Shown: positions 2,347 to 33,730 of the stretch, piece after piece
Position numbering within the stretch: the stretch's first letter is position 1
Layout of the letters: every line of letters begins with the position of its first letter
Sequence record: PZ154896.1
DNA length: 64,000 nt
Reading direction: 5' to 3' (one strand)
DNA from: a phage
Translations under genes and position numbers: made by a program
The notes under the pieces: generated by a model
The model's input: only the letters and a program-made list of their open reading frames with translations
What the model was told of the DNA's origin: nothing
Database searches by the model: none

Positions 2347-4329
2347 ATGGCACTTCTCTCTCCGGGCGTTGAGCTCAAAGAAACTACCGTACAGAGTACT
2401 GTAGTTAATAACTCCACTGGTACCGCTGCCCTGGCTGGAAAATTCCAATGGGGACCTGCATTCCAGATTAAACAAATCACTGATGAAGTTGCATTGGTTG
2501 ATATGTTTGGTACTCCTAATACGGATACAGCAGATTATTTCATGTCTGCTATGAACTTCCTTCAATATGGTAATGACCTTCGTGTTGTACGCGCAGTTGA
2601 TCGTGATGCTGCTAAGAACTCATCTCCTGTAGCAGGCAATATTGAATTCACAATCTCTGCTGCTGGTAGTAACTATGCAGTTGGTGATAAAATTATCGTT
2701 AAGTATTTGACCGAAACTGTTGAAGCAGATGGTTATGTCACTTCAGTTGATGTCGATGGTAAAATTCTTAACATTTATATCCCAACCGGTAAAATTATTG
2801 CTCGTGCAAAAGAAATTAATGAATATCCGGCATTGGGTTCTAATTGGACCGCCGAAGTTGCCAGTTCTTCTTCTGGACTTTCTGGCGTTATTACAATTGG
2901 TTCTATCGTAACCGATTCAGGTATTCTGTTAACTGAAGTTGAAACTTCTGAAGAAGCTATTACTTCTCTAACTTTCCAAGAATCTATTAAAAAATACGGT
3001 GTCCCAGGCGTAGTTGCTCTTTATCCTGGTGAACTTGGCGACCAGCTCGAAATTGAAATCGTATCTAAAGCAGACTATGACAAAGGTGCTTCAGCCCAGT
3101 TAAAAATTTATCCTGATGGTGGTACTCGTGCATCTACTGCTAAAGCAATCTTTGGATATGGCCCACAAACTGATGACCAATATGCAATTATCGTTCGTCG
3201 TAACGATGCTGTAGTTCAGAGCGTAATTCTTTCTACTAAGCGTGGTGAACGCGATATTTATGGTAGTAATATCTTTATTGATGATTTCTTTGCTAAAGGC
3301 GCAAGCAATTATATTTTCGCTACTGCACAAGGTTGGCCAAAAGGTTTCTCTGGCGTAATCAAACTGAGCGGTGGCTTATCATCTAATGAAACGGTTGACG
3401 CTGGTGATTTAATGGAAGCTTGGGATTTGTTTGCTGACCGTGAATCTGTTAATGCGCAGTTGTTTATTGCCGGTTCTTGTGCAGGTGAATCTTTAGAAGT
3501 TGCTTCTACAGTTCAGAAACATGTTGTAGCAATTGGTGATTCTCGCCAAGATTGTTTGGTTCTTTGCTCACCGCCACGTGCAACTATAGTTGGTATTCCT
3601 GTTAATCGTGCAGTTGATAATCTGGTTGATTGGCGTACTGCGTCAGGAACTTACACTGATAATAACTTTAATATAAGTTCTACTTATGCTGCTATTGACG
3701 GTAACTATAAATATCAATATGACAAATATAATGACGTGAATCGTTGGGTTCCATTAGCTGCTGATATTGCTGGTCTTTGTGCTCGCACAGACAATATTTC
3801 TCAGCCTTGGATGTCTCCTGCCGGTTATAACCGTGGACAAATTCTTAACGTTATTAAGCTTGCAATTGAAACTCGCCAACCACAGCGTGATCGTTTGTAT
3901 CAGGAAGCTATTAACCCTGTTACTGGTACCGGTGGTGATGGGTATGTTCTGTATGGTGATAAAACTGCCACTTCTGTTCCTTCACCATTTGACCGTATTA
4001 ACGTTCGTCGTTTGTTCAATATGGTTAAAACGAACATTGGTTCAGCATCTAAATATCGCCTGTTTGAATTGAACAACGCATTTACCCGTTCTTCTTTCCG
4101 TACAGAGACTTCTCAATATCTACAGGGTATTAAAGCTCTTGGTGGTGTATATAACTTTAAAGTTGTTTGTGATACTACCAATAACACCCCAGCAGTTATC
4201 GACCGTAATGAATTTGTAGCTACTTTCTACTTACAACCTGCCCGCTCGATAAATTATATTACGTTGAACTTTGTAGCAACAGCAACTGGTGCCGATTTCG
4301 ACGAACTAATTGGTACTGTAAGTGGCTAA
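2347..4329 (+). CDS. 18: contractile tail sheath protein
   Basis: 660 aa vs 659 in T4; SD AAGAGGA upstream; late promoter upstream. Confidence 0.95.
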   Translation: MALLSPGVELKETTVQSTVVNNSTGTAALAGKFQWGPAFQIKQITDEVALVDMFGTPNTDTADYFMSAMNFLQYGNDLRVVRAVDRDAAKNSSPVAGNIEFTISAAGSNYAVGDKIIVKYLTETVEADGYVTSVDVDGKILNIYIPTGKIIARAKEINEYPALGSNWTAEVASSSSGLSGVITIGSIVTDSGILLTEVETSEEAITSLTFQESIKKYGVPGVVALYPGELGDQLEIEIVSKADYDKGASAQLKIYPDGGTRASTAKAIFGYGPQTDDQYAIIVRRNDAVVQSVILSTKRGERDIYGSNIFIDDFFAKGASNYIFATAQGWPKGFSGVIKLSGGLSSNETVDAGDLMEAWDLFADRESVNAQLFIAGSCAGESLEVASTVQKHVVAIGDSRQDCLVLCSPPRATIVGIPVNRAVDNLVDWRTASGTYTDNNFNISSTYAAIDGNYKYQYDKYNDVNRWVPLAADIAGLCARTDNISQPWMSPAGYNRGQILNVIKLAIETRQPQRDRLYQEAINPVTGTGGDGYVLYGDKTATSVPSPFDRINVRRLFNMVKTNIGSASKYRLFELNNAFTRSSFRTETSQYLQGIKALGGVYNFKVVCDTTNNTPAVIDRNEFVATFYLQPARSINYITLNFVATATGADFDELIGTVSG

Positions 4330-13080: not shown

Positions 13081-13171
13081 AAATCACCATTATAAATAAT
13101 AATATCAAAATAATTAGCAGAGACTCTATCTCTGACCCAATGTTTAATTTGAATGGATAGAACCTAGATTC

Positions 13172-17142: not shown

Positions 17143-17310
17143 CTATAGTAAAAGTTGGGTTTCGTTCAATTGCTCTTCTGAACTTTCTGAAACCGGCATT
17201 TGTTGGACATAATTATAACAAGGCCCAGGATGTGCTGGACCTTTGTCTGTTTCAACAACCAATGCAGAATCGATTGGAGTTTTACAGACAACACAAATCT
17301 TATCTGACAT
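17143..17310 (-). CDS. small hypothetical protein with CxxC...C motif (below ORF-track cut-off)
   Basis: 55 aa hand-translated (MSDKICVVCKTPIDSALVVETDKGPAHPGPCYNYVQQMPVSESSEEQLNETQLLL); SD AGGAGG 6 nt before ATG; TATAAATA on - strand about 30 nt upstream. Confidence 0.5.
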   Translation of the reverse strand: MSDKICVVCKTPIDSALVVETDKGPAHPGPCYNYVQQMPVSESSEEQLNETQLLL

Positions 17311-17339: not shown

Positions 17340-17347
17340 TATTTATA
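17340..17347 (-). promoter_or_regulatory. late promoter TATAAATA (- strand) for the 55-aa ORF
   Basis: exact motif on - strand overlapping uvsY.-2 stop. Confidence 0.5.
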
Positions 17348-18035: not shown

Positions 18036-18061
18036 ATTATACACAGGTTGCCTTGAAGCAT
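18036..18061 (-). promoter_or_regulatory. candidate MotA-dependent middle promoter for uvsY
   Basis: - strand ATGCTTCA about 12 nt upstream of TATAAT, in the 25-uvsY intergenic region. Confidence 0.35.
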
Positions 18062-18459
18062 TACACTCTATTGCTTGACGCTAACTGAAGTTTAATTTGT
18101 TCAATATCGTCAGGGTTATCTACGACCGAAAATCTAATCTCTACTATAACCGTATAGTCATCATATACTGGCGTTACACTTACAGAAAGTTTGTCGATGC
18201 GTGGCTCATAGTTACGGACGGCTGCCTGGATATTACGCTCAATCGTATCGGCTGTAAGCGGTGTCATGTTCTCGAAAAGTTCGTCGACCAAATCGCATCC
18301 AAATTCAGGGTCGAAGGGGCGTGAGCCTTTTCTAGTTGTCACTATGCCAAGAAGACTATTTTTAATAGAACGAAGTCCTACAGAACGAGCAACGTCCTTG
18401 TTCCAATCCATACGCATTTCTGGGTCGATATCTGAATAAAGTTTATTGATATTAGACAT
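18061..18459 (-). CDS. 25: baseplate wedge protein
   Basis: 132 aa as in T4 gp25; synteny. Confidence 0.88.
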   Translation of the reverse strand: MSNINKLYSDIDPEMRMDWNKDVARSVGLRSIKNSLLGIVTTRKGSRPFDPEFGCDLVDELFENMTPLTADTIERNIQAAVRNYEPRIDKLSVSVTPVYDDYTVIVEIRFSVVDNPDDIEQIKLQLASSNRV

Positions 18460-19085
18460 TATAGTAACTCAAAGAATTCTTTGAGGCCTCGTATTGTGTG
18501 AACGTGTGACGCCCCACATTTGGGACATTTAATAGGGGTTGCCAGATAAATTGATGGCGATACCAAAAGATTTTTAATATTGATCATGTCATCTTCTGTT
18601 ATAAGGCCGTAAAGGTCGTTTATTTCTGCTTCAGTTAAATCTTCAACAGGGATAGACTCTCCATTGACAAAAACGGCCTCAATACATGAAGCAATCATTA
18701 ATGCTATATTTTTATCGTCAAATAATTTAGGTTGACGGAACTTAATTTTAATACCGCTGAACGAATACCAGGGATCGGCCTGTTCATCTAATTGAGTGTG
18801 CAATAAATTCATATAGACTTGAAATGAATGCCCACAGGAACAATTCCAGGTGTGTTCTTGATTCACTTCACCTAATGAATGTGCCCACAGATTTACCAAC
18901 AATAGCTCTGCTTCTTGTTTAGACAAGTTTTTAGCGTTAGAACAATTAGTGATAATATCGTTCACTGCTGATTCAATAGTACCGGTAGCCCGTGCACCTA
19001 TGAGTCCTAAATATTCTTTTAAAGTAAAGGCTCTACAATTCACTTCTTTATCGCCTAAACGTACGGTAAACGTATATTTGTACAT
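18459..19085 (-). CDS. 26: baseplate hub protein
   Basis: 208 aa as in T4 gp26; SD AAGGAG; divergent from gene 51. Confidence 0.85.
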   Translation of the reverse strand: MYKYTFTVRLGDKEVNCRAFTLKEYLGLIGARATGTIESAVNDIITNCSNAKNLSKQEAELLLVNLWAHSLGEVNQEHTWNCSCGHSFQVYMNLLHTQLDEQADPWYSFSGIKIKFRQPKLFDDKNIALMIASCIEAVFVNGESIPVEDLTEAEINDLYGLITEDDMINIKNLLVSPSIYLATPIKCPKCGASHVHTIRGLKEFFELL

Positions 19086-19103
19086 GTTAACTCCTTTATT
19101 GTG

Positions 19104-19115
19104 TATTTATAAATA
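19104..19115. promoter_or_regulatory. palindromic bidirectional late promoter (TATTTATAAATA) for divergent genes 26 and 51
   Basis: 12-nt perfect palindrome carrying TATAAATA on both strands between divergent baseplate operons. Confidence 0.6.
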
Positions 19116-19132
19116 ATAGAAAAGGAGTAATT

Positions 19133-19885
19133 ATGGCTAATATAATTCGTTGTAAATTACCGGATGGTGTTCATCGTTTTAAGCCGTTCACTGTGGCGGA
19201 TTATAGAGACTTTTTACTAGTTAGAAATGATATCGAACATCGTTCGCCGCAAGAACAAAAAGAAATAATTGCCGATCTGATTGATGATTATTTTGGCGAG
19301 TACCCTAAAACATGGCAACCATTTATATTCCTGCAAGTTTTTGCAGGCTCTATAGGCAAAACAAAAGTTCCTGTTATTTTCACTTGCCCTAAATGCTCTA
19401 AAGAAAAAACTGCACCATTTGAGATATATCAAAAAGAACTAGTCGAACCTGAACTTGATGTTGCTGGTATAAAAATACGTTTTTCTTTCCCTGAAAAGTT
19501 TTATGACAATAAAGCATTAATGATAAGTGAAAACATAAAAGAAATATATTATAATGATGAATGGTACCCATGGAATGATTTGACCGAAGAGAACCAAATC
19601 CAAGTAATAGAAGCAATAGACATTGACTCGCTCGAGAAGGTTATTGCTTCTATGAACCCTATTAATTTGACCCTTAGATTAGGTTGTTGTGAACGTCATG
19701 TTAAAACATATACTGATATCTTAGAGGTTTTTAAATTGTTAGTTAACCCTGATGAGATTTTTACATTCTATCAGATAAACCATTCACTAGTAAAGAGTCA
19801 ATACACATTGGATTCTATTATGCAAATGATTCCTGTTGAACGTGGTATTGCTTTAACATTAGTAGAAAAGGACCATAAAAAATGA
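19133..19885 (+). CDS. 51: baseplate hub assembly protein
   Basis: 250 aa; SD AAAGGAG; synteny. Confidence 0.85.
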
Positions 19886-21054
19886 CAGTATTCCAACGTC
19901 CAGGATATCCTAACTTAAGCGTTAAATTATATCAAGATTATTCGGCTTGGCAAGAAAATAGATATGTTGAACTCGCAGCAACAATAACAACTTTAACCAT
20001 GCGAGATTCGCTATATGGAAGAAATGAAGGGATTCTTCAATTTTATGACACTAAAAACATCCACACTAAAATGGATGGTAGACAGATAGTCCAAATCTCT
20101 GTTTCAAATTCAAACACACCTCTCCAAGTTAGAACTCGAATTTATGGATGTAGACATTATTCTGTGTCTGTGGACTCAAAAGGTGACAATATTATTGCAA
20201 TTGAGCTTGGAACAATACATTCTATAGAGAACCTTAAATTTGGGCGACCATTCTTCTCAGACGCAGGAGAATCTATACGTGAAATGTTAGGTGTCATATA
20301 TAAAGACCGTACGTTAATTACTCCGCCAATAAACACTATTAATGCTTATGTTCCTGATATTCCTTGGACAAGCACATTTGATGATTATTTGGCATATGTC
20401 AGAGAATTAGGACTTGCTACAGCGAGTGATAAGTTCGTATTCGTATGGCAAGATATTTTAGGCGTAAACATGATTGACTATGATACTCTTATTGGTCAGG
20501 AAGGCATTAAGATGGTTGTAGGTGAGCCAAATACTGTAGGTCAGTATATTCAAGAGCTTGAGTATCCATTGGTATGGGATTTCACCTGGATGACTAAAGC
20601 TAACCAATTTACAAGAGACCCTATTAAAAACGCCACGATATTCGCTCATTCATTTTTAGATACATCTATTCCGGTTATTGTTACAGGCGATGGTGATAAT
20701 GCTATTCTTGTGTCAAGATCAGGTGGATATTCCGAAATGACCTATCGTAATGGATTTGAAGAAGCAAGTCGTCTTCAGACAATGGCTCAATATGACGGAT
20801 ATGCTAAATGCACTACTACAGGTAATTTTAACATAACGCCTGCTACTAAAATTATATTTGTTGACCAAAAGAACCAATTCAAATCCGAATTTTACGTGGA
20901 TGAAGTTATTCATGAGTTATCAAATAACAACTCACAAACTCATCTGTACATGTTTACCAACTCGATGGTGTTAGAACCTGTTAACCCAGTTAAGGTTAAA
21001 AATGAACTTAAATCTGATTCTACCTCTAAAGAAAATAATTCTACCACAGTCTAA
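19882..21054 (+). CDS. 27: baseplate hub protein
   Basis: 390 aa vs 391 in T4. Confidence 0.9.
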
Positions 21055-21535
21055 TAAAAAGGTAATGATTCCCAAATTAGGGCTCAAACATTATAATCTT
21101 TTAAAGGACGTTAAAGGCCCTGATGAAAACATGAAAATCTTAGCAGATTCTATTTGTAAAAATATGAGTCCAGCAGATTTTGATTTTGCATGTCTACACA
21201 TATTGGAATTTAATAACAAACTTAAGTCTGAAGTTGAAAAAGATGGATTCACTTATAAACTAGATGACGTCTATGTATGCCAACGAACAGAATTCCAATT
21301 TCAAGGTAATACTTTTTATTTTAGACCCCCAGGCAAATTTGAACAATTCGCTACAATCAGTGAAATGCTATCAAATTGCTTAATAAAAGTTAATGACGAA
21401 GAGAAAGAAATTTCTTTCCTTGAGATGCCTGCTTTTGTAATCAAATGGGCAGAAGACCTTTCGACAACTATTGCTATTCCAGGCCCTAATGGCCCTATTA
21501 AGGGTATAGCAGAAATTATTGGATTGCTTGAATGA
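21002..21535 (+). CDS. 28: baseplate hub distal protein
   Basis: 177 aa; full-length match to T4 gp28; overlaps gene 27 by 53 nt. Confidence 0.88.
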
Positions 21536-23304
21536 AACCTGAAGAAATGAAATCCATGCGTAGAAATAAGGTCATTGCCGATAATAAACCACAAAAAGTA
21601 GCTGCAACAGCAGCTACTGATTCATTAGAAGCATTGAATGACATTTCATCAAAACTAGACGATGTCCAAGCCGCGTCTGAACTCACATCACAAAGTGTAG
21701 AAGATAAAGGCAATGGAATTATTGAATCAATTGGAGACTTAAAGAATTCGACAGATAATACTGCTGAAGGCACAGAGCTTATCGCAGAAGTTATTGAAAA
21801 ACAAACTGAAGTCACTAAAAGTATAAACGAAGTTTCTAGTGCAATAAGCTCCAAGTTAGACCGATTAGCTACATTATTAGAGCAAAAATTACAAACATCT
21901 ACCGCTATTCAAAATACAGGAGGCACCTCTCTTGAAGTAATTGAGAACGCAATACCTGTTAAAGTGGTTGATAACGAAACTTATGATGAGTTGTTTAAAG
22001 CATTACCTACACCTGAAAAGATTGATAATAAGCCAGACGAAGATTTCTTCCCAGCCCCGGTTCAAGAAAGTGCTAATTCTACTTCTGATTCTAAAGGCGG
22101 GATTAGCTTTAAATTGAGCGATAAAATTGCAATGCTCACCAAAACAGTTCAAGCCGGGTTTAATAAATCAATATCAATTTCAGACAGAATTGCTGGAATG
22201 CTTTTCAAATACACTATAACGGCTGCTATTGAAGCAGCAAAAATGGCCGCACTTATTCTTGGTATTGTTATCGGTATTGATTTATTGATAGTCCATTTCA
22301 AATATTGGACAGACAAGTTCACTTCTGCCTGGGATTTATTTGATGAAAACTTTACTAAATTCTCCGATGAAGCTAAAGAGTGGGGTAAATTCTTAAGTGA
22401 TATATTCACTTCTATTGACTCTATAAAACAATTGTGGGAAGCTGGAGACTGGGGTGGTTTAACTGTTGCTATTGTCAAAGGTGTAGGAACAGCATTAATG
22501 AACTTAGGTGAACTAATTCAATTAGGAATGGCTAAACTCTCCGCGTCTATATTGCGTGCTATAGGTTTTGGTGATACCGCAGACGAAATAGAAGGACGTG
22601 CTTTGGAAGGATTCCAAGAAACTACTGGGAACACATTAAAGAAAGAAGACCAAGAGAAAGTCGCTAAATATCAAATGAAGCGTGACGACGGGGAATTAGG
22701 AACCGTTTCTAAAGGTCTTGATATGTTACAACGCGGCAAAACATTCGTTACTAACTGGGTTCGTGGTAATGACAATAAAGAAGAGTTTAGTACAAGCGAT
22801 GAGCGTGCTGCGGAATCGGCAAAATTAAAAGAGTTACCTGAAGAGGAGCGTAAAGAGGCGTATATAAAAGCTAATGAAACTCGTGCGGCACTAGTTAGAT
22901 TTGAGGATTATATCGATAAAATCGATATGACTAATCCAGAAAATGCTAAAAACGTCGAGAAGTCTTATGCTGATTTAAGTAAACTTATTAAAGACCCTGA
23001 ACTTAATAAAACTCCTGTTGTTAAAAAGGAATTAGATGCTAGATTTGAAAAGCTAAATAATAAAATGGCTGAAGCCAAAAAAGCTCAGACGACAGTTAAG
23101 CCTGAATCTTCGACTAAATCTCCGGAAGCAAAACAAGTTCAGTCAATAGAGAAAGGACGTGCTTCTGAATCTAAACAACAGCAACCGGTAGCGGCGATTA
23201 GTAACACAAATAATGTCGTCAAAAAGAATACCGTAGTCCAGAATATGACCCCTGTAACAAGTACAACGGCTCCTGGAATTTTCCATGCCACCGGTGTTAA
23301 TTAA
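21532..23304 (+). CDS. 29: tail-length tape measure / baseplate hub protein
   Basis: 590 aa as in T4 gp29; synteny. Confidence 0.9.
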   Translation: MKPEEMKSMRRNKVIADNKPQKVAATAATDSLEALNDISSKLDDVQAASELTSQSVEDKGNGIIESIGDLKNSTDNTAEGTELIAEVIEKQTEVTKSINEVSSAISSKLDRLATLLEQKLQTSTAIQNTGGTSLEVIENAIPVKVVDNETYDELFKALPTPEKIDNKPDEDFFPAPVQESANSTSDSKGGISFKLSDKIAMLTKTVQAGFNKSISISDRIAGMLFKYTITAAIEAAKMAALILGIVIGIDLLIVHFKYWTDKFTSAWDLFDENFTKFSDEAKEWGKFLSDIFTSIDSIKQLWEAGDWGGLTVAIVKGVGTALMNLGELIQLGMAKLSASILRAIGFGDTADEIEGRALEGFQETTGNTLKKEDQEKVAKYQMKRDDGELGTVSKGLDMLQRGKTFVTNWVRGNDNKEEFSTSDERAAESAKLKELPEEERKEAYIKANETRAALVRFEDYIDKIDMTNPENAKNVEKSYADLSKLIKDPELNKTPVVKKELDARFEKLNNKMAEAKKAQTTVKPESSTKSPEAKQVQSIEKGRASESKQQQPVAAISNTNNVVKKNTVVQNMTPVTSTTAPGIFHATGVN

Positions 23305-23312
23305 GGATTATT

Positions 23313-24422
23313 ATGATTAGTGTAAAAGAAATAGTAGTAGATGCAAAGGATTTAAATAAAGCAATCCCAGTCTCAGAAAGTGCTGGGCAAAGCACTAAAA
23401 CCGAAACAACTACTAAAACTTATGTTGCTCAATTTCCTACAGGAAGAGCAGCCGGAAACGACTCCACAGGAGACTTCCAGGTAACAGACCTTTATAAGAA
23501 TGGATTATTATTTACCGCGTACAATATGTCTGCACGCGATTCAGGATCCCTCAGGAATTTACGTCCGGCGTATGCCGGCACTTCATCTAACGGTATCATA
23601 TCGGATTTAACTGATAATGTGAAAGATGCAGTGACTAAATTCTCTAATGGGTTGCTTCCTGCCGGAGCTAATAAACCTACTATAAATAAAACTCCTGTTG
23701 CTAATATACTTTTGCCACGTTCCAAATCCGACGTTGATACAACTTCACATCGTTTTAATGATGTCGGTGATAGCCTTATTACTAAAGGTGGAGGTACTGC
23801 TACGGGTGTTTTAAGTAACATTGCTTCTACTGCAGTTTTTGGTGCATTAGATTCTATTACTCAAGGGCTTATGGCTGATAATAACGAACAGATTTATACG
23901 ACTTCTCGTAGTATGTATGGCGGTGCTGAGAACCGTACTAAAGTCTTTACATGGGATTTAACTCCACGTTCAACTGAAGACCTTATGGCTATTATAAACA
24001 TTTACCAATATTTTAACTATTTCTCATATGGTGAGACCGGTAAATCACAATACGCCCAAGAGATTAAAAGTTATTTAGACGAATGGTACCGTTCAACGTT
24101 TATTGAGCCTATGACGCCTGATGATGCAGTAAAAAATAAGACATTGTTTGAAAAGATTACTGCGTCATTAACAAATGTATTAGTTGTAAGCAACCCTACA
24201 ATTTGGATGGTTAAAAACTTTGGTTATACATCTAAATTTGATGGATTAACTGACGTATTTGGCCCATGTCAAATTCAAAGCGTACGTTTTGATAAAACTC
24301 CAAATGGACAATTTAATGGTCTTGCTGTTGCTCCTAACTTACCATCAACATTTACGTTAGAGATAACAATGCGAGAAATTATTACATTAAACCGTTCTTC
24401 ACTTTATGCGGGGACTTTCTAA
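23313..24422 (+). CDS. 48: baseplate tail tube cap
   Basis: 369 aa; synteny. Confidence 0.88.
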   Translation: MISVKEIVVDAKDLNKAIPVSESAGQSTKTETTTKTYVAQFPTGRAAGNDSTGDFQVTDLYKNGLLFTAYNMSARDSGSLRNLRPAYAGTSSNGIISDLTDNVKDAVTKFSNGLLPAGANKPTINKTPVANILLPRSKSDVDTTSHRFNDVGDSLITKGGGTATGVLSNIASTAVFGALDSITQGLMADNNEQIYTTSRSMYGGAENRTKVFTWDLTPRSTEDLMAIINIYQYFNYFSYGETGKSQYAQEIKSYLDEWYRSTFIEPMTPDDAVKNKTLFEKITASLTNVLVVSNPTIWMVKNFGYTSKFDGLTDVFGPCQIQSVRFDKTPNGQFNGLAVAPNLPSTFTLEITMREIITLNRSSLYAGTF

Positions 24423-25384
24423 TGTACTCTTTAGAAGAATTTAATAACCAAGCTATAAATGCAGATTTCCAACGAAACAATATGTTTAGTTGTGTATTTG
24501 CTACTACACCATCGACTAAATCATCTTCACTAATTTCGTCAATTGGTAGTTTTGCTTATAATAACTTAGGGTTGGATTCAGATTGGCTAGGATTGTCTCA
24601 AGGTGATATCAATCAGGGCGTAACAACCCTGATTACAGCAGGAACACAGAAATTAATTCGAAAATCAGGTATAAGTAAATATCTGATTGGAGCAATGAGT
24701 CAACGTACGGTACAAAGCTTGTTAGGTGAGTTCACAGTAGGAGCTTATCTGATAGACTTCTTCAATATGGCATATAATAATACAGGTTTAATGATTTATT
24801 CTGTAAAAATGCCTGAGAACCGATTATCGTATGAAACGGATTTCAACTATAACTCCCCGAACATCCGAATTACCGGCCGTGAAATGGACCCGTTAGTAAT
24901 AAGCTTTAGAATGGATTCCGAAGCATCTAACTTTAGAGCAATGCAAGACTGGGTAAACTCAGTCCAAGACCCTGTAACAGGTCTTCGCGCTTTACCACAA
25001 GACGTCGAAGCAGATATTCAGGTTAATTTACATGCACGAAATGGTTTACCACATACCGCTGTCATGTTCACTGGATGTATTCCTGTTAGTGTCTCTTCTC
25101 CTGAGTTAACGTATGACGGTGATAATCAGATAACAGTTTTTGATGTAACATTTGCTTATCGCGTTATGCAATCAGGTGCTGTAAATAGACAGGCTGCTTT
25201 AGAATGGCTGGAATCAGGACTTATTAGTAGCGTTTCAGGAATGTTTGGAAATAATCAGAATGATTCTGGTCTAGGAAGTGCAGTATCAAGACTTTCTAGA
25301 TTAGGTGGGACTGCTGGAGGTGTGTCTAATATAAACACATTGACAGGTGTGGTGAATTCTGCGTCAAGAGTTTTAGGACTATAA
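24422..25384 (+). CDS. 54: baseplate tail tube initiator
   Basis: 320 aa as in T4 gp54. Confidence 0.88.
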   Translation: MYSLEEFNNQAINADFQRNNMFSCVFATTPSTKSSSLISSIGSFAYNNLGLDSDWLGLSQGDINQGVTTLITAGTQKLIRKSGISKYLIGAMSQRTVQSLLGEFTVGAYLIDFFNMAYNNTGLMIYSVKMPENRLSYETDFNYNSPNIRITGREMDPLVISFRMDSEASNFRAMQDWVNSVQDPVTGLRALPQDVEADIQVNLHARNGLPHTAVMFTGCIPVSVSSPELTYDGDNQITVFDVTFAYRVMQSGAVNRQAALEWLESGLISSVSGMFGNNQNDSGLGSAVSRLSRLGGTAGGVSNINTLTGVVNSASRVLGL

Positions 25385-33606: not shown

Positions 33607-33730
33607 TTTAAATTCTCAATTCGAGATAATATTTAGTAGCCACGTTCTTCTGAATTTCACCTTCTTTCGACAAGTCTCTCAGTTGTAGGCTACCGCTTAG
33701 AAGAGTGTTCTCTTCATATAGTTATTTATA

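Follow-up and report, generated by a model that had tools for sequence, protein, structure and literature searches.

A 12-nt palindrome between the divergent baseplate operons of an RB69-like phage: very probably two overlapping late promoters

Why does a perfect 12-nt palindrome lie at the very point where two baseplate operons of a T4-type phage diverge, and what could be its function there? The palindrome, TATTTATAAATA, occupies positions 19104-19115 of the window, that is, of the whole 64-kb (64,000 nt) stretch of phage DNA that was analysed, and is embedded in the context ttgtg TATTTATAAATA atag. A perfect dyad at exactly this place had been claimed in a sequence-only reading of the same DNA, and it was found again on reading the letters of both strands. 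It very probably represents back-to-back gp55-dependent late promoters of the T4 type, driving genes 26-25 in one direction and genes 51-27-28-29-48-54 in the other, promoter activity at this site being carried over from work on relatives. The promoter pair is already known, having been predicted or annotated in RB69-type genomes as the homologue of a long-described T4 feature.

Genomic setting of the palindrome

The phage is RB69-like (Mosigvirus), of the T4 type, and is approximately 99% identical to several Mosigvirus records while being a different isolate. With a 1.5-kb query centred around the palindrome, 158 phage records were matched, all of them RB69-like and the best with 99% identity. 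Its gp51 matches that of several Mosigvirus phages at 100% identity, that of RB69 at 99.6% and that of T4 at about 72%. The genes on both sides of the palindrome are the following:

18061-18459, minus strand: gene 25, baseplate wedge, 132 aa (PF04965; RB69 annotation); downstream of gene 26 in one leftward unit
18459-19085, minus strand: gene 26, baseplate hub, 208 aa (PF12322, E 2.7e-60; RB69 gp26 annotation)
19133-19885, plus strand: gene 51, baseplate hub assembly protein, 250 aa (PF12322, E 4.6e-59)
19882-25384, plus strand: genes 27, 28, 29, 48 and 54, downstream of gene 51 (Pfam and RB69 annotation), namely
19882-21054, plus strand: gene 27
to 21535, plus strand: gene 28
21532-23304, plus strand: gene 29
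23313-24422, plus strand: gene 48
24422-25384, plus strand: gene 54

The palindrome falls inside the 47-bp gap which separates the start codons of gene 26 on the minus strand and gene 51 on the plus strand. Its proposed location between divergent baseplate operons, with genes 25-26 on the minus strand and genes 51-27-28-29-48-54 on the plus strand, is in agreement with both the Pfam matches and the RB69 annotation. Genes 26 and 51 are themselves paralogues, both showing full-length PF12322 matches (E ~1e-60) and sharing 25% identity over about 200 aa (E 1e-10); the putative bidirectional promoter is thus the centre of a head-to-head paralogue pair.

An exact search recovered TATTTATAAATA as a single copy in the 64-kb window, where 0.05 copies are expected by chance and where at least one copy was obtained in 5 of 100 dinucleotide-preserving shuffles. 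When one mismatch was allowed, one other, unrelated site was found in the window and the counts stayed at chance level. Therefore, TATTTATAAATA is not a repeated element, and the argument in its favour is one of conservation and not of repetition. The window being composed of 62% A+T, the 12-mer taken alone is only modestly improbable and, consequently, the case for a function rests on its context and conservation. An AT-rich palindrome arisen by chance and devoid of function would find its best support in this base composition and in the shuffles where the 12-mer reappeared; against it, the palindrome sits exactly at the junction of the divergent late operons and at promoter-typical distances from the genes on either side. 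The probability of such a chance origin is practically negligible, for reasons that become clear from the comparison with other phages given below.

Late-promoter boxes, predicted starts and ribosome-binding sites

The palindrome is made up of two copies of the late-promoter box TATAAATA, one on the plus strand at 19108-19115 and the other on the minus strand at 19104-19111, which have the TATA at 19108-19111 in common. The overlap of 4 nt that had been proposed for the two -10-like elements is confirmed by these shared positions. In late promoters the box occupies positions -13 to -6 (Nolan et al. 2006, PMC1524935), and the transcript starts listed below were predicted by applying this rule to each strand:

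19083-19135, both strands: quasi-palindromic cassette of 53 bp, arranged as ATG-SD-start-box/box-start-SD-ATG, both start codons included
19104-19115, both strands: palindrome TATTTATAAATA, the union of the two late-promoter boxes with their 4-nt overlap
19108-19115, plus strand: TATAAATA box (-13 to -6) of the putative gene 51 late promoter, 17 nt before the gene 51 ATG
19104-19111, minus strand: TATAAATA box (-13 to -6) of the putative gene 26/25 late promoter, 18 nt before the gene 26 ATG
19121, plus strand: predicted gene 51 transcript start, an A located 6 nt past the box; leader of about 12 nt
19097-19099, minus strand: predicted gene 26 transcript start, nominal +1 at 19098; leader of about 13 nt
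19122-19127, plus strand: Shine-Dalgarno AAGGAG of gene 51, from the sequence
19091-19096, minus strand: Shine-Dalgarno AAGGAG of gene 26 (CTCCTT on the plus strand), from the sequence

The plus-strand start predicted at 19121 coincides with the opening A of AAAGGAG. On the minus strand, the nominal start at 19098 is a T with an A of that strand on each side, at 19097 and 19099, so that the real gene 26 start is probably off by one base; the predicted leader of gene 26 reads (U)AAAGGAGUUAACAUG. Both boxes are found directly upstream of an AAGGAG ribosome-binding site, and the predicted start sites of the two promoters are 23 bp apart. Since the dyad sits between both predicted starts, it would be transcribed by neither promoter. 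A hairpin or cruciform role for TATTTATAAATA is not favoured, stability not being expected of a loopless 12-bp dyad composed entirely of A and T.

The mirror arrangement extends outward to the arms of the cassette, 19083-19097 (CATGTTAACTCCTTT) and 19121-19135 (AAAGGAGTAATTATG), which are 15 nt each and 80% complementary. By string logic, perfect divergent TATAAATA boxes are self-consistent with overlaps of 4 nt or 2 nt only, and the 12-mer is the tightest arrangement in which both of them keep the consensus; the 14-mer TATTTATATAAATA is a form in which both TATAAATA boxes are intact and the dyad of the 12-mer is broken. The 6 nt following the box, where melting of a late promoter takes place, are ATAGAA on the plus strand (5 of 6 being A/T) and CACAAT on the minus strand (4 of 6), which agrees with the A/T-rich segment of such promoters but is not distinctive in DNA of 62% A+T.

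TATAAATA is present in 19 copies in the window for 7.0 +/- 2.7 expected, a 2.7-fold excess that was reached in none of the 100 shuffles. Twelve of the 19 copies, including both boxes of the palindrome, are positioned 17-30 nt before an ATG on the same strand. The 17 and 18 nt measured for the palindrome are the shortest box-ATG distances in the window, the ten other gene-preceding copies being located at 20-30 nt. The junction thus displays what is seen in late promoters, namely two perfect boxes, each followed on its own strand by baseplate genes at a distance within the 17-30 nt range of the window, as well as what defines a divergent pair, with boxes of opposite strands sharing 19108-19111 and oriented away from each other, the minus box facing gene 26 and the plus box facing gene 51.

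Copies of TATAAATA at 3706, 6936, 8612, 23681 and 13091 (plus strand) and at 33723 and 48875 (minus strand) are intragenic or lie from 77 to more than 2000 nt away from the next start on the same strand, the copy at 13091 being intergenic and facing minus-strand genes and the one at 23681 being internal to the stretch of genes 27 to 54. These out-of-place copies may act as late promoters, internal or antisense, or may simply be matches without function. Another copy, at 17340-17347 on the minus strand, is followed by AGGAGG and by the ATG of a 55-aa ORF (17143-17310, uvsY.-2 homologue), and OL960576 carries a late-promoter annotation at the homologue of this box.

The presence of two perfect boxes could also result from a single working box, the other TATAAATA having been completed by four chance bases and the genes on that side being transcribed from elsewhere. 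The additional TATT comes at little cost in AT-rich DNA, a composition estimate giving about 1% per site and about 0.2 expected over 19 sites. Furthermore, activity is not proven for every T4 consensus site: 50 late-promoter sites are listed in T4 in the review of Geiduschek and Kassavetis, some of them without demonstrated in vivo activity. Genes 26 and 25 could also, in principle, be reached by minus-strand read-through from early or middle transcription. Such an arrangement with one working box is nonetheless very unlikely, as the window search gave no further TATAAATA upstream of either gene 26 or gene 51 besides the boxes of the palindrome, and as the start and Shine-Dalgarno contexts on both sides are mirror images of each other.

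Other classes of phage promoters were considered as well. A scan for sigma-70-type promoters, early or middle, showed none over the palindrome beyond the chance level; its single consensus-like site lies downstream (19117-19146) and does not exceed what chance would give, so this candidate was rejected. By sequence reading, no MotA-box-like TGCTT was seen near -30 on either side of the palindrome.

The 26/51 junction across T4-type phages

In T4, the identical 12-mer is located at NC_000866.4 116450-116461, 17 nt before gene 51. Within a GenBank panel picked to cover the range of gp51 identity, the exact 12-mer was recovered in 11 genera, namely Tequatrovirus, Mosigvirus, Karamvirus, Gelderlandvirus, Gaprivervirus, Dhakavirus, Kagamiyamavirus, Jiaodavirus, Lazarusvirus, Zedzedvirus and Muldoonvirus. 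IMG/VR was scanned with a gp51 alignment, yielding 59 loci, 51 with genes 26 and 51 head to head and 8 in which they are colinear. The exact 12-mer was present in 45 of the 51 divergent loci, down to a gp51 identity of 38%.

Around this core, very little is kept in common. Among 29 distinct contexts carrying the 12-mer, the most common base at the adjoining positions reaches a frequency of only 0.38-0.5, and the conserved blocks beyond these flanks are motifs belonging to the opposite gene (Shine-Dalgarno and start site), with no conserved -35 element. Across loci, 16-33 nt separate the 12-mer from the ATG on its left side and 15-24 nt on its right side. The core is fixed while its surroundings drift, and the 12-mer is gone where the divergent arrangement is gone.

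The position of the 12-mer, together with its invariance across genera, excludes chance, and a palindrome without function is effectively refuted by this conservation, the 12-mer being invariant in phages whose gp51 is just 38-50% identical. None of the 12 bases, those of both outer tetranucleotides included, varies across the 11 genera while their neighbours drift, which also argues against a single working box completed by chance. In addition, both divergent transcripts were reportedly mapped in T4 by Scarlato, Storlazzi, Gargano and Cascino in 1989, which would be against transcription of one side from elsewhere. Since each of the 12 positions lies in at least one box, selection on two promoters explains the conservation.

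Elsewhere, three variant architectures were encountered, at the positions given here:

Aeromonas T4-type phages, TATTTAAATA sites: L012 at ~655-704; L014 at ~654-698; L058, L060 and L064 just upstream of 1201
Krischvirus junctions: L011 at 627-698; L059, L061 and L063
Colinear loci: L015, L016 and L017 around 670-701; L068-L074 and L077 upstream of 1201

In the Aeromonas phages (Tulanevirus, 3 of the 51 divergent IMG/VR loci), TATTTAAATA, a palindrome of 10 nt, takes the place of the 12-mer; it reads TTTAAATA on either strand, corresponding to two boxes with one mismatch each and an overlap of 6 nt. In Krischvirus (RB49-like, also 3 of the 51), the palindrome is broken: the plus strand carries TATAAATA and, 8 nt ahead of it, TATTTAG, whose opposite-strand reading CTAAATA is situated 30 nt before the gene 26 ATG. 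On sequence grounds, the Krischvirus junction looks like a non-overlapping form of the divergent pair. The retention of a separate element per strand in this lineage suggests that each direction needs its own box and not the palindrome as such, and a box-like element kept on each strand despite the loss of the palindrome is a further argument against the use of one box only.

In the Slopekvirus and Pseudotevenvirus types (8 of the 59 IMG/VR loci), genes 54-51-26-25 follow one another on one strand and there is no divergent junction. Before gene 51 of the colinear loci (Slopekvirus, Pseudotevenvirus, POP12), neither TATAAATA nor another late box or motif of this kind was found. At most of these loci, gene 51 is instead preceded by a terminator-like GC-rich hairpin and T-run (GGGGC...GCCCCTTTT), and only 3 bp precede gene 51 in POP12. 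The colinear and divergent gene orders therefore imply a rearrangement between lineages, with a breakpoint at the 51/26 boundary.

The variant junctions also bear on the possibility that the palindrome is kept mainly as the site of a dimeric protein, DsbA or another regulator, that would control the baseplate genes, its promoter role being secondary. A perfect dyad inside a 53-bp quasi-palindrome is what such a protein could recognise, and T4 DsbA is reported to bind, though weakly, A/T-rich sites overlapping late promoters. However, the overlapping 8-bp boxes already constrain 12 of the 12 positions, leaving no need for an extra constraint, and the outer symmetry results from two paralogous genes having their Shine-Dalgarno and ATG signals in mirror image. 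The lineages in which this palindrome is broken retain a box per strand, separate in Krischvirus and with one mismatch each in Tulanevirus, and DsbA itself is non-essential, has a micromolar affinity and is without effect in the in vitro late system. Conservation for a dimeric protein is consequently highly improbable, and two overlapping late promoters are the preferred reading of the palindrome.

Predicted behaviour of the promoter pair and comparison with known systems

Concerning previous records of this promoter pair, the T4 GenBank and RefSeq entries have no promoter feature annotated at the 26/51 locus. The 1989 work of Scarlato and colleagues in T4 is said to describe overlapping promoters for the divergent transcription of a base plate gene cluster, and lists of T4 late promoters are said to be found in Miller et al. 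2003. In RB69, late promoters were predicted at Pl:118620 (plus strand, 118620-118662) and Pl:118672 (minus strand, 118630-118672) by Nolan et al. 2006 (PMC1524935, Additional file 5), and by coordinate transfer both of these cover the homologous palindrome at RB69 118641-118652. Both boxes are also annotated as T4-type late promoters at the homologous site of OL960576 (Mosigvirus SA79RD, GenBank). The bidirectional late promoter put forward from the sequence is accordingly supported by this RB69 prediction and OL960576 annotation, in addition to the typical spacing of its boxes, its strict conservation and its absence at colinear loci.

Other late promoters predicted close together on opposite strands can be found in the same Additional file 5 of Nolan et al. 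2006, at 80613(+)/80684(-) in RB69, 144977(+)/145030(-) in RB49, 122785(+)/122835(-) in Aeh1, and 165866(+)/165930(-) and 32617(+)/32662(-) in RB43. In view of these pairs, back-to-back late promoters may be a recurring design.

The way in which two such promoters would operate on the same DNA can be deduced from published T4 work, in which gp55 replaces sigma-70 and reads the flipped non-template bases -12, -9 and -8 in the open complex. According to the review of Geiduschek and Kassavetis, late promoters have no -35 element, the closed complexes are without sequence specificity, and gp55 homologues are present in every sequenced T4-related genome. The plus box (19108-19115) would direct gp55-RNA polymerase to start near 19121 and to transcribe gene 51, then genes 27-28-29-48-54, and the minus box (19111-19104) would direct a start near 19098 for gene 26, then gene 25. 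Either mRNA would carry a leader of about 12-13 nt that begins just before AAGGAG.

In the activated complex described in T4, gp33 and the gp45 clamp are found at the upstream edge, the footprint is extended by 13 bp and gp33 cross-links near -39/-35. With starts 23 bp apart and an upstream reach of about -39, a complex assembled on one promoter would therefore cover the box and the start of the other and about 15 bp beyond, and the coexistence of two complexes would be excluded. From this footprint geometry, a single DNA copy would fire in one direction at a time. The mutually exclusive initiation suggested for this site is thus plausible, being geometrically sound and reasonable as a deduction from published T4 footprints.

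The orientation of the gp45 clamp sets the polarity of late-promoter activation in T4, and the direction of firing would probably be set here by the orientation of the arriving clamp. As each promoter would be activated by one clamp orientation only, the two would draw on separate clamp populations rather than engage in simple competition, the DNA being what they share. It is an unlikely extension of this deduction that the tightest overlap has been retained almost everywhere, in preference to a 2-nt overlap or to separate boxes, as a switch, whereby expression of genes 26-25 versus 51-27-28-29-48-54 would be split according to the strand that bears the nick or primer end, e.g. by the direction of replication. 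If true, the stoichiometry between gp26 and gp51, which are paralogous hub-assembly proteins, would be coupled to replication. The conservation of the 12-mer does not require a switch, since purifying selection on two 8-bp boxes explains it.

As a discovery, the promoter pair carries little weight, being the homologue of a long-described T4 feature. Its interest resides in the compactness of a natural bidirectional promoter, in which 12 bp serve two operons inside a 47-bp mirror-symmetric cassette, and in its possible use as a test bed where an oriented sliding clamp would choose between promoters on the same DNA. The comparison also shows which features are under selection, with a core that is invariant in at least 11 genera and three variant architectures elsewhere. 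The breadth of the conservation, the catalogue of variant architectures, the paralogy of genes 26 and 51 and the mirror-symmetric 53-bp cassette are what the present analysis adds.

Taken together with known systems, the nearest counterpart is the pair of 26/51 late promoters of T4, which has the identical 12-mer, the same flanking genes (26-25 leftward and 51-27-28-29... rightward) and the same 17 nt to the gene 51 ATG. The two phages belong to Tequatrovirus and Mosigvirus respectively, the gap is 50 bp in T4 versus 47 bp here and the flanking bases differ, with no difference in kind. RB69 and OL960576 represent the same locus in the same genus, the intergenic sequence of RB69 being identical to that of the window and both strands being called late promoters, these calls consisting of computational predictions or annotations and not of transcript maps. 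The other T4-type head-to-head 26/51 junctions likewise present late-box-like elements on both strands.

Outside of T4-type phages, symmetric bidirectional sigma-70 promoters, in which -10 elements of opposite strands overlap, are reported to have been described in bacteria by Warman et al. in 2021. The likeness with the phage junction consists in one short AT-rich dyad that serves as the -10 region and in divergent starts separated by no more than about two helical turns. The phage promoters, on the other hand, would be recognised by gp55 through an 8-bp box at -13 to -6 without a -35 element, with starts 23 bp apart, and would need gp33 and an oriented gp45 clamp.
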